Assembly: GCA_963743885.1 (NCBI GenBank)
Contig: CAVURJ010000002.1
Span: 369,706 to 433,705 of the forward strand
Direction of reading: 5' to 3'
Origin: Candidatus Moraniibacteriota bacterium
GTDB lineage: Bacteria > Patescibacteriota > Minisyncoccia > Moranbacterales > UBA1568
DNA length: 64,000 nt
Positions within the stretch are counted from its first letter, which is position 1; each line of letters opens with the position of its first letter. The position numbers and the translations under genes were made by a program. The notes beneath the pieces are model-generated. The model was not told the DNA's origin, did not search any database, and worked only from the letters and a program-made list of their open reading frames with translations. This document shows positions 5,281-60,552 of this stretch, piece by piece.

Positions 5281-6222
5281 ATGTCAGAGAACCAGCCGTA
5301 TCTGTCGGTCGTTGTGCCACTGTATAACGAAGAGGGGAACGTGCTCGAGCTGCATCGGAAGATTCGTGAGGCGCTCGAGAAGATCGGCAGACCATTCGAG
5401 ATCATCTTTATCGATGACGGGTCCAAGGACAAGACGCTCGAAGAAGCGAAGCAGTGCCATCCGCTTCGGCTCGTCTCTTTCCGCAAGAATTTCGGCCAGA
5501 CGGCAGCCTTTGATGCTGGTATCAAGGCAGCGACCGGGGAGATCGTCATCACGCTCGATGGTGACCTCCAGAATGATCCGGCTGATATCCCGCTTCTTCT
5601 CGAGAAGATCGATGAGGGGTATGATGTGGTGTCTGGCTGGCGGCACAAGCGTCAGGATCCATGGAGCAAGAAGATCCCGTCCCGTATCGCCAATCTGCTC
5701 CGCAAGATTCTCATCCAGGACAATATCCATGATTCCGGCTGCAGCCTGAAGGCCTACCGCCGTGAGTGTTTCCGTGATGTGGATCTCTTCGGTGAGATGC
5801 ACCGTTTCATGCCGGCACTCCTGTCGCTCGATGGCTTCCGTGTGGCTGAGGTCAAGGTCTCACACTATCCTCGCGTACATGGCGTGACGAAGTACAACTG
5901 GAAGCGTGGCATCAAGGGCTTCGTCGATATGATCTCGATCTGGTTCTGGCGCAAGTATTCGCACCGGCCGATTCATCTTTTTGGTGGTTCTGGCATCCTG
6001 CTTTCGGTCGTTGGTTCTGGTATCCTCGCTTGGATGCTCATCGAGAAGCTCGTCTTCGGCGCTTCGATCGCGGAGCGCATGTGGCCGCTCGTCGGCATCT
6101 TCTTCGTGCTGGTCGGCGTGCAGCTCTTCGTCTTTGGCCTTCTGGCTGATATCGTCATCCGCAATTACTACCACTCACGCGGAAGGATGAATTATTCCAT
6201 AAGGGAGATAATTGAAAATTAA
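5281..6222 (+). CDS. GT2 polyprenol-phosphate glycosyltransferase (DPM1/GtrB/ArnC-like) with C-terminal TM helices
   Basis: VVPLYNEE, IFIDDGSKD and DGDLQND motifs, with two C-terminal TM helices. Confidence 0.85.
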   Translation: MSENQPYLSVVVPLYNEEGNVLELHRKIREALEKIGRPFEIIFIDDGSKDKTLEEAKQCHPLRLVSFRKNFGQTAAFDAGIKAATGEIVITLDGDLQNDPADIPLLLEKIDEGYDVVSGWRHKRQDPWSKKIPSRIANLLRKILIQDNIHDSGCSLKAYRRECFRDVDLFGEMHRFMPALLSLDGFRVAEVKVSHYPRVHGVTKYNWKRGIKGFVDMISIWFWRKYSHRPIHLFGGSGILLSVVGSGILAWMLIEKLVFGASIAERMWPLVGIFFVLVGVQLFVFGLLADIVIRNYYHSRGRMNYSIREIIEN

Positions 6223-12305: not shown

Positions 12306-13959
12306 TTATTCCTTTATATAGCTGATAGCCGATTTTCGTACGCCTTTGCCGAGGCGGATCGAAGCGGATGGATATCCGGATCCGAAAGAGATATCCGATG
12401 ATTGGCTCCCTTCGATGAGGACGGATGGGCGGGAGGAGGATGGCTGGGAAGGATTCTTGAAGGCGGCGCTGCGCACATTAGTTGCGCGGATACTCGGCTG
12501 ATTCGTCGTCTTGATCTTGATATCCTCGAATCGTATGCCATCTACATTCCGTATACTTATCCCATTCTTCGATCGTGTCTGTATGTTCTCAAATGAGAGA
12601 TTTTGGACGAAGCTATCATCGGCTCCGACAATCAAAATTGCATCATTTGCCTGGGAACATGAGATGTTCTTGAATGAGATATTCCGGAAGACGGGTGGAC
12701 CAGTTGTTGTCGGCCGGACGACATTTTTGGAATCGTAGAACATGTTGAGGAAGATGGCTTCGGCTAAGATGTCATTCATTTTGATATCCTCCACCCAGAT
12801 ATTCTCGACGATCCCACCTCGTCCGGGCGCTGATTTTATCCGGAAACCTCTTTTCGTGCCATCGAAACGGCACTGCGCTACAGAGACGTTCTTCACTCCT
12901 CCGGACATCTCGCTTCCGATGACGATGCCTCCGTTCCCTCGGCCGACCGTACAATCTCTGATGATAATGTTTTCCGACGGGATACCGACGCGCTGGCCGT
13001 CCTTGTCGACTCCGGATTTGATCACGATGGCATCATCTTCCGTGTCGAGACGTACCCGTTCGATGAGGACATTTTTCGAGGAATCGATGACGATTCCGTC
13101 ATTGTTCGGGCCGTCTGTCTCTACAGTCACGTCGCGGATGAGGATATCTTCGGAATAGAGCGGGTGGATGGTCCACATGGGACCGTTCTTGGCTGTGAAT
13201 CCTTCGAGTCTGATCCGTTCGCAGTCGACGAACTGGATGAGCGAAGGGCGGAGACCGTCGTCTATCGTCCCGAATACCCGTTCTTCCGCGGGGACGCCGG
13301 CATCGGAGAGAGCGTAGAGCCTTTTCGTTCCTGAGAGTTGCCATCGTTTCCAATCCCACCAGGATTGGCCTCGGCCGTCAATCAGGCCTTTGCCGGTGAT
13401 GGTGATGTCGTGGCAGCCGTGCGCGTAGATGAATGGGGAATAGTTGTAGAGCTCTATCCCCTCATAACGCGAGAAGACGGGCGGCAGGTAGTCCGCAGGA
13501 TCCTCGGCTGAAGAGGAGCTCGGCTCCTTCTGAGATATCGAGACGGATATTACTCTCTAGGCGGATCGGTCCGGTCACGAAGCGGCCAGCCGGGATGCGC
13601 ACAGTCCCGCCTCCGTCGCCCGAGCAGTCGTTCAAAGCGAGCGCGATCGCTTTGGTGTTTGATGTCTCTCCATCACCGATAGCGCCATAGGCATCGATCG
13701 AACAGACGCGGTCGAGAGTCTCGAAGAGGCGCATCGGAGGCATTTCGAATGGCAAGACATAAGCGCTCCAATCTTCTGAGAAGGCGACAATCCTCTCTTT
13801 CGGTATCTCATCTGACTGATGGATAGAAAATGCTGCCAGGGTCAAAAAGAGTACGAGCGAGGCGGTCTGGAGGAGGAGTATCTGTGTCCGCACCCGTTTT
13901 CTTTCTGAATCGTTTTTTCTTTTGTGGAGGTAGTTTTTGCAGGTAGCAAATATTCCCAT
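12306..13959 (-). pseudogene. Glycoside hydrolase family 28 (polygalacturonase-like beta-helix) gene with a single frameshift near 13500
   Basis: The N-terminal ORF (13462-13959) carries a signal/TM helix and DAYGAIGDG..GGGTVRIPAG..TGPIRL. The downstream frame reads PADYLPPVFSRYEGIELYNYSPFIYAHGCHDITITG ... NNDGIVIDSS. The break lies at ...LLFSAEDPADY. Confidence 0.6.
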
Positions 13960-24017: not shown

Positions 24018-24547
24018 GAATTAATTGAGGCCCGATACGAATGATCCGAAAAATATCCGAATAACACGAATTAATAATTCCCTACCTATCAGTAAGAGAA
24101 TAACCGACTATTTCTTTTATTGTAGAGGTTTTTTGGAAAAAAAGAAAAGGCTACTATGGAGGGTAGCCTTGGGTGGGACGGAGATCCGGAGGGTTGAGAT
24201 GATCGATCCCTTGTCGACTTTTGTCGAATCCTCTGGTTTCAGCTCGGGCAGGCGTATCGTCGCATGAGTGGAAGGGTTGGGCGTTTGCACGCGTTTTCCA
24301 AAACCCGCATCACTAATGAGCCGTGCCGCTGGAAGAAATTTTCTTCCTTAGCTGATTATCGCAAGGGATATCCCGTATTTTCGGTTGAGGATGAGTATGG
24401 GTCTGCAATGTGCAGTTACGTCCATGCGATATCTCTCCCGGGCTCTCCGTCCCTGGAAAAGCTCTTCTGAAAAGCCCTTTCAGGGACGGGGAAAGCATTG
24501 TTAAGAACATTTATTCTAGCGCAAAAAACGTATTCTGTCAAGAATAT

Positions 24548-31625: not shown

Positions 31626-31750
31626 TAAATTCAAAATCTCAAGCTCCAAATAAATTCAAAATCTTAATTTCAAAATCCGAAACGTTTGATTTTTTGAGTT
31701 TTGATATTGTGATTTATTTGGAAATTGTAATTTTTGATTTGTGATTTACT
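31626..31750. repeat. Intergenic repeat family, copy C
   Basis: aaattcaaaatctcaagctccaaataaattcaaaatcttaatttcaaaa ... gatttatttggaaattgtaatttttgatttgtgatttac. Confidence 0.75.
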
Positions 31751-33716
31751 TCGTTCTTTTATAAATATCCACCAGTTCAGAAGCATATACTCTGGAGAAA
31801 GATGATGATTTCTCGAACTGCGCCGTATCGTATGCCGGGTTGACCATGACGAGGTCAGTACTGGTCTCGGCATAGCATTTCTCTCCTTGTGGGGTATTGG
31901 GCACTGAGATCATGAGGAGTGTGCACTGCTCGCGGTTTGGATTGTCCTCGTAGCGCTTGAAAAAACCACGTGAGAACGGATAGGAGTAGTCGCGCATGAA
32001 GAAGAGCTTGATCCAAGAGTCCGCGGAGAGATAGTTGTGATCTTTGAGAACGACATCGCTCGTGTCGGTCCGATCTGAGAGATAGCGCGACGCGGCGAAG
32101 GTTTGGGCAGCTTCAAGAGATTTGGTTGCCGGTAGAAGCGTCTGGCTATTGTCGAAGGATCCGCTGCCGGACGCGAAGGCAAAGACAGAAAAAATGGCGA
32201 CGAGAAAAAGAATCGGCGGGAAATAGGTCCTTCGGTCGGTATTCCGGATCCAGGCGAAGAGCATGATGATGCCAAAAGCGGCGAGCAGACCGAGCGGAAA
32301 GGAGAGATACGCGCCGATGCGGCTCGAGGGGATATCGATGAAAAGCCACTCTGGTCGCATGGTCATGATAAGGAGGATGATACTCCAGCCCGCGAGGAAG
32401 GCGCCAGCATAGGAACGGCGGGCCTTGCGGAGCATAAGGAGAGCGGCGAGTCCTGCGAGGCCGAGAGCGACGCGTGCTTCGCCGTTTGAGGATGCGATCT
32501 GCAGGAAGGAAAGGCCAGTGCGTGTCGTCTTGGTCGGAGTACCGATGGCGGTGCCGACGGCATGGGTCTCGATATAGGTCGGCATTGCGACTGCGAAGAA
32601 GAAGACGATGCAGGCAATCGCGACGAGAAGCGGTCCAGGTGAGAGGATGAGTCGCATCCAGGAACGGAAAGTCTCTTGGAGGTCATCTGATCGGAAGATG
32701 AGATAGGCGAAGACGGAAGCAGCGAGCGTGAAGAGGAGAATGAGTGTACTCAGATGATGCGTGTAGGCGAGTGTGAAGGTGAGGAAGAATCCGAGCGCGA
32801 GGAAGCCAGAGCGTTTTTCAGTGAAAGCGCGGTAATAAGCGAGGAGGATGAGTGGGATGAAAAGGTTGCCGAATGTGTTGCCGACGACGCCGCCGGAAAC
32901 GAACTTGGCTTGTGGCGAGGCAAGACTGTAGATCGGTCCGAAAAGGAAGAGTGTAGCAAGTGCGATATTGCCAGGATTGAAGATGCTTTCGGAAGTGAAG
33001 AGGCCTTTCAATCCGGAGGCGAGTCTATAGGCAAGGAAAGCGATTGCAAGGAGTGCAAGGAGATTGACGAAGAGGAGGAAAACAATCGGGAAAGCTGAGA
33101 AAAAGCTAGCGCCGGAGAAGATCGCTACCGCCGCGAAGGGAAGATGCTCGCCGATGATGAAGTCAGCGATTGGCTGCGGATCAGATAGAGCATAGGCGCC
33201 GTCGATGCCGGTCACGATCTCTTGCTTCGCATAAGAGGGGAGCGTACCGGTCTCCGCGACGAGTTTCGCCCAGTACATATGATGACCGAGGTCAGTCGCG
33301 GTCGGAAGCACAGCGTGCATCATGTAGATGGTTTTGATAAGGAGAGTCAGCACGAGGATAGAGAGGAAGACCCAGCCTTGGCGCTTCGAGAAGGCGGGCT
33401 GATCAGAGAGGATAGCTGCCCCAGTAGTTTCTGGTCGGACTTTCCGTATGAGTGAGATGACAAGTACGAGGAGTGCGAGTCCGGAAAGCGTGCCTGTCGC
33501 GAGCGAGAGCGGACTGAAAAGCACCCCGGACTTGCCGAGGGCGATCATGAGGAAGTCGAGGAATCCGATGCTTGTTGCGAATGAGAACAGAAGTGTCTCA
33601 AACGGCACGAGTGAGCCATCCTTCCTGAAAGCGGCACGCAGCAAAAAGAATCCTGGTACGAAAAAAAGGATGCCAGAAACAAGAAGGAATGAGAATGAAG
33701 GGAAAAATGCGTGCAT
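31746..33716 (-). CDS. Large polytopic membrane protein with a C-terminal soluble domain (GT-C-like architecture, hypothetical)
   Basis: More than 14 predicted TM helices over about 520 aa, then a soluble tail of about 130 aa. Confidence 0.4.
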   Translation of the reverse strand: MHAFFPSFSFLLVSGILFFVPGFFLLRAAFRKDGSLVPFETLLFSFATSIGFLDFLMIALGKSGVLFSPLSLATGTLSGLALLVLVISLIRKVRPETTGAAILSDQPAFSKRQGWVFLSILVLTLLIKTIYMMHAVLPTATDLGHHMYWAKLVAETGTLPSYAKQEIVTGIDGAYALSDPQPIADFIIGEHLPFAAVAIFSGASFFSAFPIVFLLFVNLLALLAIAFLAYRLASGLKGLFTSESIFNPGNIALATLFLFGPIYSLASPQAKFVSGGVVGNTFGNLFIPLILLAYYRAFTEKRSGFLALGFFLTFTLAYTHHLSTLILLFTLAASVFAYLIFRSDDLQETFRSWMRLILSPGPLLVAIACIVFFFAVAMPTYIETHAVGTAIGTPTKTTRTGLSFLQIASSNGEARVALGLAGLAALLMLRKARRSYAGAFLAGWSIILLIMTMRPEWLFIDIPSSRIGAYLSFPLGLLAAFGIIMLFAWIRNTDRRTYFPPILFLVAIFSVFAFASGSGSFDNSQTLLPATKSLEAAQTFAASRYLSDRTDTSDVVLKDHNYLSADSWIKLFFMRDYSYPFSRGFFKRYEDNPNREQCTLLMISVPNTPQGEKCYAETSTDLVMVNPAYDTAQFEKSSSFSRVYASELVDIYKRTK

Positions 33717-35980: not shown

Positions 35981-36023
35981 ACCAAGTGTGATAAGTGATG
36001 ATTGATGAGAGACAGATGATAGA

Positions 36024-36239
36024 TTAGAGCTTCTGGATTTCCTTGAGGTCCTTGTCGGGGAGATAGAGGATTAGGAGGCCGATGACCACGCCGCCGATAG
36101 CTGTAATCATCTTGTTCCCGTCGAGCAGGTAGATATCCACGCCATCAAGGACGTGCCATATGCCACGCCATACCAAGACGAGCCCGATGACGATGCTGAG
36201 ATTCTTCGTGAGATAAGAGAGCGTCAGCTTATGTTTCAT
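36024..36239 (-). CDS. Small 2-TM membrane protein
   Basis: 71 aa and hydrophobic, immediately downstream of the GT2 gene. Confidence 0.35.
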   Translation of the reverse strand: MKHKLTLSYLTKNLSIVIGLVLVWRGIWHVLDGVDIYLLDGNKMITAIGGVVIGLLILYLPDKDLKEIQKL

Positions 36240-36279
36240 AGGATAGCTTGGTTAGGCGGATATATGGATGATGTCTGTT

Positions 36280-36531
36280 CTACTTTGATGACTGCTTCTT
36301 GATGAAGAGCGATGGATCGACGCAGCGGAATTTTGTGATGCACTGCTCCTTCACACCCTCGACGCCCTTGCTGATGAGCGTCTTTTGGCACTCATCAAGC
36401 TGCTTACGGCACTCTGCTTGCGCACCTTTGAAATAGCTCACGTTGAGCTCATAACCGAAGTAGGGCAGCACGAAATACGCGATAACAGCAATCCCAGCGA
36501 TCCAGATGATGAGACGGATGAGGTGAAACAT
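36280..36531 (-). CDS. Small membrane-anchored Cys-rich protein
   Basis: 83 aa, N-terminal TM helix, 5 Cys. Confidence 0.35.
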   Translation of the reverse strand: MFHLIRLIIWIAGIAVIAYFVLPYFGYELNVSYFKGAQAECRKQLDECQKTLISKGVEGVKEQCITKFRCVDPSLFIKKQSSK

Positions 36532-36548
36532 ATCTTTTTGATATTTAT

Positions 36549-36632
36549 CCGTTAACGAGTTATACGGGTTAACGGGTTACAATCCAATGAATTTCTCACT
36601 CGAACTCGTTAACGCGTGAACACGTTAACTGA
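36549..36632. promoter_or_regulatory. GTTAACG-containing motif, copy 2
   Basis: ccgttaacgagttatacgggttaacgggttac ... cgaactcgttaacgcgtgaacacgttaactg. Confidence 0.45.
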
Positions 36633-36642
36633 ATAACCGTAC

Positions 36643-38293: not shown

Positions 38294-38902
38294 ATGTTTC
38301 TCACACCGAAAATTGAACAGGCCATCAAGCGGGCGACGGAGCTCCATGATGGTCAGAAACGCAAGGTGAGCGGGATGCCGTATATCGTGCATCCGTACGC
38401 GGTCGCTTTTCTTTTGGCGCACTATACCGAAGATGAAGATGTCATCATTGCCGGCCTCCTGCATGACGTCCTCGAAGACGTGCCTGGCTATACGGAAGAC
38501 GATCTCATCGCCGAGTTCGGCGCACGCGTCACGGCGATCGTGAAGGAAGTGACAGAAGATTATACAGAAGCCGAGAAGGTGGATCACAGCCTCCGCCGGC
38601 AGGGGTGGAAGGAGCGCAAGAAAAAATATCTCGCCAACCTATCCGATGATAGCCACGAAGCGCTTCTCGTCGCGACGGCCGACAAGATCCACAATATCCG
38701 CTCGCTCATCGATGATTATACGGTGCACGGCGAAGCGACATGGGAGCGGCTTGGCAATAAGGAGCGGATCTTCTGGTTTTATGGAGAGACAGTCCGCATC
38801 ATCTCTGAACGACTCAGCCACCCGTTGTCTGAAGAATTGAGAAAAACCTTTGATGAAGCCAAAAAGGTAGTCGCTAACAATAGTATTTCAGATGAATCTT
38901 GA
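38294..38902 (+). CDS. HD-domain phosphohydrolase (RelA/SpoT-like small alarmone hydrolase type)
   Basis: HD motif (IVHPYAVA ... LLHDVLED), about 200 aa. The start is reassigned to MFLTPK because the caller start lies in a partial repeat. Confidence 0.65.
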   Translation: MFLTPKIEQAIKRATELHDGQKRKVSGMPYIVHPYAVAFLLAHYTEDEDVIIAGLLHDVLEDVPGYTEDDLIAEFGARVTAIVKEVTEDYTEAEKVDHSLRRQGWKERKKKYLANLSDDSHEALLVATADKIHNIRSLIDDYTVHGEATWERLGNKERIFWFYGETVRIISERLSHPLSEELRKTFDEAKKVVANNSISDES

Positions 38903-38927
38903 CAGAATCTTGATAAGGTGCTATACT
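38899..38927 (+). promoter_or_regulatory. Consensus sigma70 promoter P1 (TTGACA - 17 bp - TATACT)
   Basis: cTTGACAgaatcttgataaggtgcTATACTg. Confidence 0.6.
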
Positions 38928-38929
38928 GT

Positions 38930-39870
38930 TTCTTCACCCTGAAATACTTTATAGCATTGACGGGCGAAAGGATTGATGGTATATTAGTCCTATGTTCTTT
39001 GAATGATTATGATGATGTCTCAAGAGAAGCGGACGGTACCGCGGGTAGCTTGTTTGTCCTGAAGAGTTCGGAACAAGCAAGCTACCGACGTGGTAGTATC
39101 TGAAGGAGCAATCCGACATGAAGAGGTTCGCCTTCGCGATGAGCATCGACTACACGACACGTACGACCAAAACCTGCGCCTCCGGCACCGGCAGTTCCTG
39201 AACCACGCTGGGCGGCCAGGGCGACGCTTTTCAGGTGTTCCTTCGGGGATACCGAGAGCGTGCCAGCCCTTTCGCCGACCTGCGGTCGTGAGCAGGAGTA
39301 GTAAGTAGTTCGCGACATTCCGCCGGGATATGAAAATCCCACGGGACGAAGGCAAGGAATAGGGGACAGACGTCCGATTGGTTGTGTCGCGTCCAGTAAG
39401 TACGGATGCGCCTGAAGATCGGTCCGAGTCCGCCACCTGTCCCTTGCGTCCCAAGGGTTTTCCGACGGAAAAGGGTAAGTATCATCATCGCCAATCGCGC
39501 ATGGGCTTCGGGGGAATTCGATCTCCCGCGTCTAGGCTATCGGCCGCGTACCCCTGATTTTTTTGGGTCGCCGCCGCGCCGCTCGCCCATCGTGCACAAC
39601 GAGGAGGAAGCAATGCAAGCATCGCAACCCCTCGACGACATCGACCATCGCCGGTTCCGGTACCATGCGGCTCTGACCCGCATATCGGCCGGACGACTGA
39701 TGGACGCGTCGTCGCCTGACATTTCAGGCTCACGCCAGCTGATAACGAAGTTCTAAAGGGAACGGAGAATCGGCGGCAGGCAGGCGCTCTCCTGCCAGAA
39801 TACATTTTCGAAAAGTGTGGTATAATCCGGGGCCTCGTGCAGATTCTTTGCATGAGGCCCCTTCAACTTT
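38930..39870 (+). ncRNA. Candidate large structured non-coding RNA (about 0.9 kb, class unknown), or a decayed gene
   Basis: About 1.1 kb with no plausible ORF (only Arg/Pro-rich junk frames). It is GC-rich, preceded by tandem consensus promoters, and ends at two strong intrinsic terminators. Local hairpins are abundant. Confidence 0.3.
38957..38985 (+). promoter_or_regulatory. Near-consensus sigma70 promoter P2 (TTGACG - 17 bp - TATATT)
   Basis: aTTGACGggcgaaaggattgatggTATATTa. Confidence 0.55.
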
Positions 39871-39876
39871 TTTCTC
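39829..39876 (+). terminator. Strong intrinsic terminator
   Basis: GGGGCCTCGTGCAgattctttTGCATGAGGCCCCttcaactttttt. Confidence 0.75.
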
Positions 39877-39887
39877 TACTGTTTTTT

Positions 39888-39911
39888 GAAACCGCTTTTT
39901 GCGGTTTTTTC
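39888..39911 (+). terminator. Second intrinsic terminator
   Basis: gAAACCGCtttttGCGGTTTtttc. Confidence 0.65.
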
Positions 39912-40070
39912 ATACTCTTGTTTGCTGGTATAATAGAGGCACTATGCCCGGTAGTAGAACTTCGATCGGGTGTTTGGTAGACGATCAAAGAAAAGAGCGT
40001 CTTTTCCTGTTCAGTAGAGAGGCGATATCGGTTAGGTTTTTGGGGAATTATCAAAGTTTCACTACCGGGT

Positions 40071-41273
40071 ATGAAAATCGGTATTAACGCGTCATTTTTG
40101 CGGAAGCCTGGGACCGGTATCGGGCAAGTTACCACTAACTTCTTGCAGAAGTTAGTGGAGTATTATGTATCCAGTAGTACGTATCAAGAAAATACAAAAT
40201 ACATACTACATGATACGAAATACATTCTCTACACCGAAGAACCGATCACTTTCCCATTACCTGCGAATTTCGAAAACAAGCACTTCCTGCCGAGATGGTG
40301 GAAGCGCGATGATGTGCCGCGCAAATGGCTCTGGGAACGAGAGCTCTCGAAACATGCCGCCGAAGACGGCTGTGATGTGCTCCTCTCGCTGTATCAGTCA
40401 GCTACGGATTTCCATGCGACGTGCGTCATGCCACACGATACGCCGGTGCGCCACGTGATGATCGTGCATGATATCATCCCGAAGCTCTTCCCTCAGTATC
40501 TCGGCAAATGGTCGCAGCGTCATCATTGGAAAGCTGTTGAACGGGCTATCGAACGGGCTGATCATATCGTTACCGTCTCAGAAGCGACCAAGAGCGATCT
40601 TATTTGGAAGTTTTCCTTGCCCGCGAATCGGATCTCAGTGGCCCATCCTGATGCGAGTCCGCATTTCTCCGAAGTGCCGTCCGAAGCAAAGGTTGCGAGC
40701 GTACTTGAAAAATATCAGCTCAATCCGGGATATATCTATCATGGCGGGGGACTTGAGGTGCGAAAGAACGCTGAAGGTTTATTGCGAGCGTACAAACAGC
40801 GAACAATGAACAGCGAACAGAGAACAGAGATGCCGAAGCTGGTGATTTCTGGGAAGGTGCATACAAAATCGAATAAGCTAGCGACGGATGTCGAGGGACT
40901 CATTCAGGAGCTCGGACTAGAAGAACATGTGAAGTTGCTTGGCTTCGTCCCGGACGAGGATCTGCCAGCACTCTATCGCGGTGCGCTCTTTTTTGCTTAT
41001 CCGTCGTTCTACGAGGGATTTGGGTTGCCGGCGCTTGAAGCGATGCGGATGGGGACGCCAGTGCTTGCATCAGATGTTTCGTCGCTGCCAGAAGTCTGTG
41101 GTGACGCCGCGCTCTACTGCGATCCAGAGAAAATAGATTCCATCCAGGCAGGTATAGAGCGCTTCATTAGTGATGCCGCACTACGCCAGAAGCTTTCCGA
41201 AAAGGGGATGGAACAAGCGGCTCAGTTCTCATATGACGCTTTCGTAAGCCATATCATCGGGACACTCGTATGA
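40071..41273 (+). CDS. GT4-family glycosyltransferase
   Basis: EGFGLPALEAMRMGTPVLASD. An extended -10 (tgcTGGTATAAT) lies at about 39927. A short tandem repeat is embedded at 40793-40832. Confidence 0.8.
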   Translation: MKIGINASFLRKPGTGIGQVTTNFLQKLVEYYVSSSTYQENTKYILHDTKYILYTEEPITFPLPANFENKHFLPRWWKRDDVPRKWLWERELSKHAAEDGCDVLLSLYQSATDFHATCVMPHDTPVRHVMIVHDIIPKLFPQYLGKWSQRHHWKAVERAIERADHIVTVSEATKSDLIWKFSLPANRISVAHPDASPHFSEVPSEAKVASVLEKYQLNPGYIYHGGGLEVRKNAEGLLRAYKQRTMNSEQRTEMPKLVISGKVHTKSNKLATDVEGLIQELGLEEHVKLLGFVPDEDLPALYRGALFFAYPSFYEGFGLPALEAMRMGTPVLASDVSSLPEVCGDAALYCDPEKIDSIQAGIERFISDAALRQKLSEKGMEQAAQFSYDAFVSHIIGTLV

Positions 41274-58486: not shown

Positions 58487-58552
58487 TCTTTGCATCCAAG
58501 AATCCCAATTCGTATCATTCGAATATTTTTCTGGTCATTTGGGTCGATACGG

Positions 58553-58625
58553 AGATACATAGATGTACCCCTGTGATGGATGAAACTCCTTAGAAACGAT
58601 TATACGCATCCGTTTTCCGAACATT
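58553..58625. repeat. Integrase-proximal direct repeat, copy 1
   Basis: gatacatagatgtaccc ... gaaac..tagaaacgattatacgcatccgttt. Confidence 0.6.
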
Positions 58626-58917
58626 TCCCTCATTTTTCAGATTCAAGACTCCCCTGTGATATTTCACGAAAAACGGGGGGTTTTTATTACCAAACGAAGC
58701 GAGTGAAACGAAAGTAAACTTTCGTTTTCGAGCGAGTGCAGGTAAAATCGGGTTAAATACCCTCCGCCTCTGGCGGAGAGGGATTGAGTCCAGGGCTTGC
58801 CCTGGTGTGAATACCCGTTATATCTGAAATATGAAATATAAAAATGAAAAAATAATGAGGCCAGATACCAGCAAGACCTCTTACATAGAGATATGCCATA
58901 AGAATGAGCGAGGGGAA

Positions 58918-58988
58918 GGATACATAGATGTACCTCCCATGTATTCCGAAACGCTCAGAAACGATCATGCGCATCCGTTTCGGGGATG
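58918..58988. repeat. Integrase-proximal direct repeat, copy 2
   Basis: gatacatagatgtacctc ... gaaacgctcagaaacgatcatgcgcatccgttt. Confidence 0.6.
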
Positions 58989-59217
58989 ATCAGAAGTATA
59001 TTCGAACAATCTTTTGTGCTTCCTTGCCTATTTTCCTTTTTTGCTTTATTACCAAGTATCTATACTATTGTAATGTCTCATAAGTTACATAGGAAGACAT
59101 TGTATGCTTTAAAGAAAACCCGTTACAAACGGGATATTTGATTTTTGTTTTCAAGGTTCTCCTCTACCTCGACAAACCCATTATAGCATACTTTTAAAGT
59201 CCATGCAATAGATTCTG

Positions 59218-60051: not shown

Positions 60052-60286
60052 AAAACAGGAGCCCCATCTACTTCCTTCAGCTTGGCGGCTTCAGGTTTCG
60101 AATGGGGCTCCTGTTTTTATAATAGCAACGGAATCTATCTTTTGGACGTGATTCCCCTGCTACAAAGGAGTATACCACGAACCAGCCGCCAAGCGTACCG
60201 GGATTCCGGCACCTTTCCGAAGAAAGAAGGTTCTAAGGCATTAGATTGTAACGGCGCACTCTATCCTATTCTGGATATTTTGTCAA

Positions 60287-60320
60287 GCAAAAACCGCCCC
60301 AGATTGAGGCGGTTTGATAT
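60287..60320 (-). terminator. Intrinsic terminator ending the minus-strand lysis-cassette transcript
   Basis: Minus strand reads AAACCGCCtcaatctggGGCGGTTTttgc. Confidence 0.55.
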
Positions 60321-60321
60321 G

Positions 60322-60552
60322 CTACGCGGCGTATGCGGCCCGCTTGATGCGGTACCGGCCGTAGATAGCCTCCACGATACCCATGACACCAAGCACCGTC
60401 GATACGGACTGCAGCGTCCCATCAACCACTCCATCAACCTCTTCCTGCGACGCATAGTCGCTCAAGAAGTACGCGAGCACCATCTTCGCGATGCCGATGT
60501 AGGTCATGCTTCCTTGAAACATAGGATGTTCGTTATGCGGATTATTTCCCAC
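60322..60552 (-). CDS. Small hydrophobic protein (possible lysis-accessory/holin-like)
   Basis: 76 aa with one hydrophobic helix, overlapping the upstream lysin-like gene. Confidence 0.3.
   Translation of the reverse strand: MGNNPHNEHPMFQGSMTYIGIAKMVLAYFLSDYASQEEVDGVVDGTLQSVSTVLGVMGIVEAIYGRYRIKRAAYAA

Follow-up and report, generated by a model that had tools for sequence, protein, structure and literature searches.

Based on the comparison of four homologous copies, we report that a long intergenic element in the genome of a Candidatus Moraniibacteriota bacterium probably encodes a new, lineage-restricted large structured RNA, possibly with a dual function. The element lies within a stretch of 64,000 nucleotides (nt) of contig CAVURJ010000002.1 (the window, whose own numbering is used throughout), between a gene for an HD_4-domain protein (HD; ~38294-38902, plus strand) and a gene for a GT4 glycosyltransferase (40071-41273, plus strand), both assigned with Pfam. 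The alignments show its 5' hairpin (H1) and its core to be under purifying selection which follows base pairing and not codons. With a confidence slightly above even, we see in this element a vertically inherited, dispensable and independently transcribed structured RNA of ~0.85 kb, belonging to a Moranbacteria-like clade and having a function that would reside in its fold. A preliminary description of the same stretch had pointed to a large structured non-coding RNA at this place; its observations are confirmed in part and its interpretation is partly supported, since conservation, covariation and the existence of four copies argue for such an RNA, whereas no match to GOLLD, ROOL, OLE or any other Rfam family was found.

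To our knowledge, very few classes of bacterial non-coding RNA longer than ~500 nt have been described, and we know of almost nothing about the regulatory RNA of the phylum Patescibacteria. The known large RNAs (OLE, ROOL, GOLLD and others) are each structurally unusual and most of them are functionally unexplained. Patescibacteria genomes are tiny and gene-dense, so that a gene-free cassette of 1.1 kb, with a core conserved no less than the adjoining protein genes, is unlikely to be idle. No account of a comparable RNA from Patescibacteria emerged from our literature search. A streamlined genome of the Candidate Phyla Radiation (CPR) that encodes an RNA longer than 700 nt would be notable to specialists, and, should our reading be true, this RNA has been maintained over long evolutionary time under extreme genome streamlining. 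If real, it would also provide a compact case of a translated short open reading frame (ORF) with an immaterial peptide coupled to a structured RNA, together with a case for asking whether an ORF-shaped hairpin (ORF2, below) is a peptide gene or an RNA element. Its narrow distribution limits the immediate impact.

Nucleotide conservation of the element

The loci compared in this work were reached through homologs of the HD and GT4 proteins, and comprise four lineages that carry the element, one with a remnant of it and six that lack it. The four copies are those of the window and of the loci L004, L006 and L132. At the four-fold degenerate sites of HD and GT4, identity between genomes is 29-64% (0.39-0.42 for the window and L006), which is near saturation, and the core of the element (~440 nt, window 39276-39720) is 75-83% identical in every pair of copies. 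Such identity, kept where four-fold sites are nearly saturated, excludes neutral or decaying DNA. In bins of 30 nt, 43-83% of the core columns are invariant across the four copies (70-83% in the best blocks), compared with 8-33% in ORF1 and the variable regions and 11-23% in the 3' tail. Judged on these alignments, the core is at least as conserved in its nucleotides as the adjoining protein genes (nucleotide identities of 68-80% for HD and 62-83% for GT4). Additionally, the many indels of one and two nt found throughout the core exclude a single conserved long reading frame.

Predicted fold and covariation

The features of the element and of its boundaries, including the Shine-Dalgarno (SD) sequences of the two short ORFs, are the following (helices, H, are numbered as in the consensus fold):

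38899-38927, plus strand: promoter P1, TTGACA-17-TATACT, with a TG-extended -10 (11/12 to consensus)
38928-38985, plus strand: window-specific duplication of ~58 nt, which carries promoter P2 (homolog alignments)
38957-38985, plus strand: promoter P2, TTGACG-17-TATATT, with a TG-extended -10 (10/12)
39040-39090, plus strand: 5' hairpin H1, ~21 bp, with a near-invariant apical CCUGAAGAGUUCGG (-34.6 kcal/mol, z -6.7)
39102-39201, plus strand: SD1, GAAGGAG (39102-39108), and ORF1 (39118-39201; 27 residues, MKRFAFAMSIDYTTRTTKTCASGTGSS), present in all four copies
39228-39275, plus strand: hairpin region of variable length, including a cUUCGg-type hairpin at ~39237-39250 (alignments)
39276-39340, plus strand: domain with helices H8 and H9 (RNAalifold and pair counts)
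39343-39452, plus strand: long irregular hairpin domain H10-H14 (seven two-sided compensatory pairs)
39478-39496, plus strand: conserved stretch AUCAUCAUCGCCAAUC, predicted to be single-stranded (alignments)
39497-39595, plus strand: branched domain H16-H19, with the invariant block CGCCGCCGCGCCGCUC (RNAalifold and pair counts)
39601-39756, plus strand: SD2, GAGGAGG (39601-39607), and ORF2 (39613-39756), present in all four copies
39633-39714, plus strand: H20-H23, a hairpin of ~26 bp within ORF2 (RNAalifold and pair counts)
39715-39828, plus strand: non-conserved 3' tail with local hairpins
39829-39911, plus strand: two consecutive intrinsic terminators, T1 and T2 (folding)
39907-39934, plus strand: promoter of the GT4-Wzy-GT4-LytR operon, TTTTCA-16-TATAAT, TG-extended, which is the right-hand boundary and lies outside the RNA (promoter scan)

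The consensus fold predicted by RNAalifold from the four sequences has 154 pairs in 23 helices, and standard pairs are found in 95.4% of the cells of this fold. Two-sided compensatory changes occur at 16 pairs, compared with 7.5+-1.9 in column shuffles (none of 500 reached 16) and with 2-5 in slid controls, where the partners were moved by 1-3 columns. The covariation score is 0.210 (0.164+-0.010 in shuffles) and, considering the ungapped core columns, 46% of the unpaired positions vary versus 26% of the paired ones (p = 2.6e-5). The generic marks of a conserved structured non-coding RNA (conservation above the neutral level and pair-preserving substitutions) are both present, with the low power that four sequences allow. 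When the same helices are read on the minus strand only 84.6% of the cells are paired, because 79 cells are G.U; this and the orientation of the promoters and terminators favour the plus strand, and the modelled fold is thus shown to suit the plus strand better than the minus strand.

Looking at the individual domains, the hairpin H1 (arms gtagcttgtttgtcc...ggaacaagcaagctac), already singled out in the preliminary description, proved to be real: it is 77-92% identical among the four copies, with 96% of its cells paired and one compensatory pair. In the variable region (39228-39275) the copies differ by large indels, and the cUUCGg-type hairpin is retained, with an altered loop in L132. H8 (39285-39293 with 39308-39316) encloses a conserved loop of 14 nt, AGGAGUAGUAAGUA, and one of its pairs is U-A, U.G or C-G depending on the copy; H9 spans 39325-39340. 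The best-supported portion of the predicted fold is the H10-H14 domain, which as a single sequence folds with -51.1 kcal/mol (z -3.9). In the D3-D4 domain alone, 8 of 54 pairs are compensatory. In H16-H19, 95-100% of the cells are paired, with one compensatory pair and several one-sided changes (single-sequence z -2.1), and in H20-H23 (single sequence -38.4 kcal/mol, z -2.7) nearly all the variation falls in loops and bulges. Tentatively, the model pairs the conserved stretch AUCAUCAUCGCCAAUC with GAUGAUG in the 5' leader (39016-39024); this GAUGAUG/AUCAUC pairing is strong in L132 only (-21 kcal/mol, 0.3% of shuffles) and weak in the other copies.

Two short open reading frames

The region had been described as free of ORFs, which does not hold, given that two SD-led ORFs are present in all copies. 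ORF1 retains its SD, ATG, TGA and open frame in four of four copies, with lengths of 27, 27, 26 and 44 residues. With the ATG and TGA taken as given, the probability that the three other copies keep the frame and avoid stops by chance is ~0.002, computed as (1/3)^3 x 0.38 x 0.48 x 0.31 with the ATG and TGA anchors chosen post hoc. The interior of ORF1 is 40-62% identical in nucleotides, which is about the neutral level. A frame that is kept open around such an interior suggests that ORF1 is probably translated and that its peptide is not under selection.

ORF2 is 47 residues long in the window and 30-31 in the relatives, the 16 additional residues being due to the mutation, in the window, of the relatives' TAG, which lies within an internal loop of 4 nt; the stop is conserved in three of the four copies and there is one in-frame indel of 3 nt. 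Its nucleotide sequence is highly conserved. The 25 variable columns of ORF2 are distributed as 11/9/5 over codon positions 1/2/3, the reverse of what is expected of a constrained peptide, and 20 of the 25 are unpaired in H20-H23 (Fisher p = 1.5e-4). With variation which is poor in third positions and confined to loops, ORF2 resembles, at the level of the alignment, an RNA hairpin in which the reading frame is either fortuitous or a second role. The prediction that SD2 pairs with a pyrimidine stretch upstream of it is tentative, as there are two competing candidates, and the helix concerned (H5) has two covarying pairs. In L006, ~38 nt comprising SD2, the ATG and the 5' arm of H20 are duplicated in tandem (2040-2146), which gives rise to a second ORF that shares the N-terminus (MKVQSLDDS) and has another tail.

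Dual-function small RNAs combine a transcription unit of their own with an SD-led short ORF inside it, and both components are found here, the unit being a predicted one. Two SD-led ORFs kept in all copies would fit either a dual-function RNA or a structured mRNA for short ORFs. As in the well-known RNAIII (delta-haemolysin), SgrS/SgrT and SR1/SR1P systems, we find a structured RNA with its own promoter and terminator and an SD-led ORF. In those systems the peptide is conserved, whereas here the ORF1 peptide drifts neutrally and the constraint on ORF2 is on the RNA; there is no homology with any of them.

The same ORFs could also belong to a structured bicistronic mRNA, in which the peptides of ORF1 (27 residues) and ORF2 (~31 residues) would be the effectors and the fold would sequester SD2 and time the translation of ORF2, in the manner of hok/mok. 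We consider this explanation unlikely. The SD, ATG and frame of both ORFs are kept in all four copies, the openness of ORF1 is improbable by chance, and the in-frame indel and mostly conserved stop of ORF2 are what a coding sequence would have; the covarying pairs around SD2 would fit its sequestration and the patchy distribution of the element (see below) resembles that of accessory or addiction modules. The peptides themselves, however, do not behave as effectors: that of ORF1 is essentially unconstrained, the changes in ORF2 are mostly nonsynonymous and located in RNA loops, the stop of ORF2 is lost in the window, and neither peptide is hydrophobic (that of ORF2, as read from its sequence, is basic and hydrophilic) or has homologs in the searches run, which returned only noise in Pfam and PHROGs. 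The general features of hok/mok toxin mRNAs (heavy structure, an upstream and a downstream ORF, a predicted paired SD and an accessory-type distribution) are shared by the element, which nevertheless differs from them in having no hydrophobic toxin-like peptide and no detected antisense promoter (a consensus scan of limited sensitivity, run on the window, L004, L006 and L132, called no promoter-like site on the minus strand of the element). Furthermore, the ORFs of the element are ~410 nt apart and do not overlap, and the intervening ~400 nt of multi-domain RNA are its most conserved part, far beyond the needs of SD sequestration. For the same reasons of unconstrained ORF1 peptide, hydrophilic ORF2 peptide, ORF2 substitutions that disregard codon positions and no antisense promoter found in that scan, the element was rejected as a type I toxin-antitoxin system.

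Transcription signals and the downstream operon

Two promoters directly after the HD stop were part of the preliminary description, and both of them are real. P1, which had been given as full consensus, is near-consensus, and its -35 hexamer overlaps the TGA stop of HD. The tandem arrangement is indeed present in the window, and turns out to be an idiosyncrasy of it: the relatives have P1 only, since P2 was created by the ~58-nt duplication, a copy of the promoter and the start of the leader that is missing from all four homologous loci. The P1 orthologs (TTGACA-17-TAT(C/G)AT) score 11/12 in L004, L006 and L132, and TTGACC-17-TATCAT can be read at the same place in L001, the locus of the remnant. 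Our promoter scan called six promoter-like sites in 3 kb, compared with 2.8+-1.7 in shuffles. From these signals, the transcription start is likely to be close to 38992.

At the 3' end, the two consecutive intrinsic terminators fold as had been described. T1 consists of a hairpin at 39829-39861 followed by a U tract to ~39875 (-28.9 kcal/mol, z -9.0), and T2 of a hairpin at 39888-39908 also followed by a U tract (-10.8 kcal/mol, z -4.4); a strict terminator pattern scanner did not call either of them in the window. L001 has the T1/T2 pair of the window, and L004, L006 and L132 have another GC-rich hairpin with a T run at the equivalent 3' place (judged by eye; the strict scanner called none). 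Two extended -10 elements that had been noted around the terminators exist, a few bases away from where they had been placed. The one at 39923-39934 belongs to the promoter of the GT4 operon, which the scanner also finds in L004 and L132, which is visible in L001, and of which L006 retains only the -10 (CTGGTATAAT). The other, the TG-extended -10-like TGTGGTATAAT at 39816-39826, has no -35, is shared with L001 only and ends 3 nt before T1; a transcript starting from it would be little beyond the terminator hairpin.

The recurrence of the operon's own promoter in L004, L132 and L001 indicates, at the sequence level, that the RNA unit and the GT4 operon are separate transcription units. This bears on the hypothesis of a giant cis-acting leader or attenuator, in which the transcript from P1 would reach the GT4-Wzy-GT4-LytR operon through conditional read-through of T1/T2, controlled by an ORF1 leader peptide and a sensor RNA. 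The element is immediately upstream of the operon, in the same orientation, in every copy, its ORF1 resembles a leader peptide and its terminators are directly before the operon, which would suit such a role. We find it very unlikely, given the separate promoter that GT4 has after the terminators (window, L004, L132 and L001), the strength of two consecutive terminators, the lack of any riboswitch or T-box match, and the relatives which run the same operon with spacers of 19-96 bp and no such leader. The leader ORFs of mgtL/mgtA and corA are generally known to resemble ORF1 in being short 5' ORFs on a long structured RNA, with translation, and apparently not the peptide, being conserved; in those systems, the translation of the short ORF governs Rho termination or folding. 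The element, in contrast, is closed by strong terminators and followed by an operon with a separate promoter, which makes it unlike the leader of a protein gene.

Downstream of the operon promoter, the window has a 5' untranslated region of GT4 of ~136 nt (39935-40070) with local hairpins. This region is missing in L006, where GT4 starts within ~10 nt of the promoter, and in L004 the GT4 start is annotated further upstream.

Homologous loci and inheritance

The neighbours identified with Pfam in the window are UGDH, HD_4, GT4 and Wzy, and the order UGDH (minus), HD, GT4, Wzy, GT4 and LytR (all plus) is kept in Moranbacteria-type relatives. The nearest named relatives of the flanking proteins are Patescibacteria (Moranbacteria/Moraniibacteriota). 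The spacers between HD and GT4, with the identity of the HD proteins to that of the window, are:

Window: 1168 bp
L132 (HD 88% identical): 1393 bp, including an extra ORF of 86 residues
L004/L005 (HD 89%): 940 bp
L006/L007 (HD 80%): 1081 bp
L001-L003 (HD 89%): annotated as 156 bp, really ~210 bp
L133 (HD 85%), L145 (82%), L008/L009 (74%) and L134-L143 (66%): 19-96 bp, element absent
L150 and L151: neither HD nor the element

The long spacers (window, L132, L004 and L006) align over their whole length, always between HD and GT4. In L001 (6454-6683; also in L002 and L003) there is the promoter, a leader of ~45 nt, one GACGAC/GTCGTC hairpin, TGTGGTATAAT and T1/T2 as in the window, and the core of ~800 nt is missing, which we read from the alignment as a remnant left by an internal deletion. 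This mini-locus could still yield a small RNA of ~140 nt. The neighbour-joining trees of HD group the lineages with the element, the remnant and two close element-free lineages in one clade; L006 is the deepest branch of this clade, and the outgroups (L008 and L134) do not have the element. The simplest history suggested by this topology is one gain followed by vertical descent, with one complete loss (L133 together with L145) and one internal deletion (L001).

The searches for further copies covered several collections. In a 17-mer pattern scan of genome contigs, the matches listed were chance ones in GC-rich genomes, none of them confirmed by blastn; a metagenome scan, using a pattern in which 20 bases were specified, recovered no contig other than that of L006, and five pattern scans of IMG/VR gave chance seeds only. 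GenBank phages and PLSDB plasmids had no match to the element, and when the sequences examined were searched with a covariance model of the D3-D4 domain, the only matches were the four copies used to train it. The window holds a single copy.

These data also bear on whether the element is mobile or phage-derived cargo (or its remnant), such as an orphan guide or structural RNA with its protein partner lost or located elsewhere. The patchiness among close relatives, in which P1, the RNA, the terminator and the GT promoter are present or absent as a unit, points in that direction, as does a 14-nt imperfect direct repeat that flanks the unit in the window. Nonetheless, we judge this origin very improbable: the locus is constant, the phylogeny fits vertical descent, terminal inverted repeats are missing, the alignments of the homologs do not show the direct repeat, no copy was seen in the IMG/VR pattern scans, GenBank phages, plasmids or the rest of the window, and no gene for a transposase, reverse transcriptase or nuclease lies nearby. 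Membership in the known types of mobile element (insertion sequence, miniature inverted-repeat transposable element, group II intron, retron or diversity-generating retroelement) was rejected given the absence of terminal inverted repeats, the single copy in the window and the constant locus. The direct repeat (CTATACTGTTTCTT at 38921-38934 and CTCTACTGTTTTTT at 39874-39887) is probably a chance occurrence, because the aligned homologs do not show it.

The extra 86-residue ORF (5462-5826; MDNKQFSVLGRAALLLL...) that separates the element from the GT4 promoter in L132 is seen in no other lineage. It is accompanied by a promoter-like site of its own (TTTACA-17-TATAAT) and has no match in Pfam or PHROGs.

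Searches for known RNA and protein families

No Rfam 15 family reached its gathering score anywhere in the 64-kb window, and ARAGORN found no tRNA or transfer-messenger RNA (tmRNA) in it. In E-value mode, the best Rfam scores over 38700-40150 were 11-18 bits, against thresholds of 34-270 (17.6 versus 76 for the top one), and the three homologous loci had no Rfam match inside the element. Based on this, membership in GOLLD, ROOL, OLE, HEARO and raiA was rejected (below every Rfam 15 gathering threshold), as were RNase P, signal recognition particle (SRP) RNA, 6S RNA, group I and II introns, riboswitches, T-boxes and self-cleaving ribozymes (no Rfam 15 match at threshold), and tmRNA or tRNA-like identity (ARAGORN, whole window). 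Two resemblances noticed by eye, a T-box-like GGUACCGCG (39038-39046) and an ops-like GGTAGC, were set aside, as they are limited to the window and L132 and have no support from an Rfam model.

Regarding proteins, an independent gene caller predicts zero genes in the gap between HD and GT4 on the same contig. The region had been said to contain only short junk ORFs; there is indeed no credible long gene, even though mechanical ORFs of 144, 122 and 116 residues exist, all of them with no homologs and not conserved. Pfam found no domain in the three longest ORFs, a six-frame translation of the core against 5.8 billion protein clusters gave nothing at E<=1 (with only 8000 word-sharing candidates scored), and an exhaustive HMMER search with the 116-residue frame containing ORF2 had no match among 1.84 billion representative proteins. 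Relatives with an intact protein homolog, which the preliminary description had named as the finding that would overturn it, were looked for and not found. A protein-coding gene or pseudogene was thus rejected, on the unconserved long ORFs, the one- and two-nt indels of the core and the lack of homologs in the searches run.

The high GC content that had been noted for the segment is confirmed, with 0.53-0.635 over 39000-39800 and ~0.385-0.425 at the edges, which is high for intergenic DNA. A decaying protein gene, or non-functional DNA that is GC-rich and foldable by chance, would account for this coding-like composition, for mechanical ORFs of 116-144 residues and for both strands folding better than shuffles (below), but is hardly credible for a core so far above the identity of four-fold sites, with no protein homolog found in any frame, no conserved long ORF and a conserved promoter and terminators.

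Comparison with large structured RNAs and proposed mechanism

Going by the general background on these RNAs and by PMC12286853, the element resembles the "ornate" non-coding RNAs (OLE, ROOL, GOLLD, raiA and HEARO) in its size class (~0.6-0.9 kb), its many-helix fold, its GC-rich outlier character, its own (here predicted) transcription unit, the lack of a known protein product and its lineage-restricted, patchy distribution. It differs from them in having no Rfam sequence or structure match, in its four copies within one narrow Patescibacteria clade and in its two SD-led ORFs. ROOL and GOLLD are often found close to tRNAs or prophage genes, which is not the case for the element, nor does it lie beside genes for OLE-associated proteins. 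By analogy, the element would work most like these RNAs in terms of size, complexity and autonomy. At the level of sequence comparison, we place it, as a probable new class, among the large structured bacterial RNAs, where its conserved "pilot" ORF and ORF-shaped hairpin set it apart.

How such an RNA might function can be outlined as follows. The RNA would act in trans, as a structured RNA or as a component of a ribonucleoprotein (RNP), like the "ornate" RNAs, and would be dispensable for the host, since it was lost in one sublineage and reduced by deletion of the core in another. By analogy with the leader-ORF systems, ORF1 would be translated with its product being immaterial, so that translation itself would act in cis: by occupying the 5' part of the nascent transcript, a ribosome may keep a long untranslated RNA from being terminated early or degraded, or may time its folding. 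ORF2, located inside a conserved hairpin and with its SD predicted to be paired, would be untranslated or conditionally translated, and in the latter case the RNA would be dual-function. The only functional hint is the fixed site of the element, beside a small HD gene of the alarmone-hydrolase type and an envelope-glycan operon. Taken as a whole, the picture of an undescribed CPR large multi-domain RNA, similar in size and complexity to OLE, ROOL and GOLLD and serving either as an RNA machine or as a scaffold for an RNP, in which a translated "pilot" ORF steers the synthesis or folding of the RNA itself and which may be linked to alarmones or envelope glycans, is one that we hold tentatively, with a confidence somewhat short of even.

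Several points weigh against a structured, independently transcribed RNA of this kind. The predicted transcript of 891 nt has a folding energy below that of shuffles (z -4.65), and so has the opposite strand of the same unit (z -5.28), meaning that thermodynamics alone is no evidence for an RNA. When the fold of the minus-strand alignment is optimised independently, it reaches -156 versus -163 kcal/mol and 16 versus 17 compensatory pairs. The covariation set consists of four independent sequences, which gives it low statistical power, and the structure tested was derived from the same four sequences. Transcription of the unit was judged from predicted promoters and terminators, and the two SD-led ORFs kept in all copies, one of them with an in-frame indel of 3 nt, would be compatible with peptide products. 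The absence of the element from the close relatives L133 and L145 indicates that it is not essential. Finally, both the trans-acting function and the role of ORF1 translation are purely what we infer.

Other features of the window and of related loci

Besides the HD-GT4 spacer, a crude ORF map of the window shows other long gaps at 58487-59217 (731 bp, GC 0.40), 24018-24547 (530 bp), 60052-60541 (490 bp, GC 0.52) and 13179-13461 (283 bp, GC 0.58). In L150 (2993-4921), UGDH is called at 642 residues, compared with ~429 elsewhere, possibly as a result of a fusion or of a mis-called start. Between GT2 and UGDH, the window has two small genes on the minus strand (35981-36642; 71 and 83 residues, 79-84 in relatives) with no Pfam match, and at least one small gene is called at this position in most of the relatives examined. 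Within the glycan cluster, an ORF of 656 residues on the minus strand (31746-33716) has no Pfam match on record in the window; equivalents of 654-660 residues recur in relatives, with a DUF6541 match in L150 and a faint DUF1616 match in L151.

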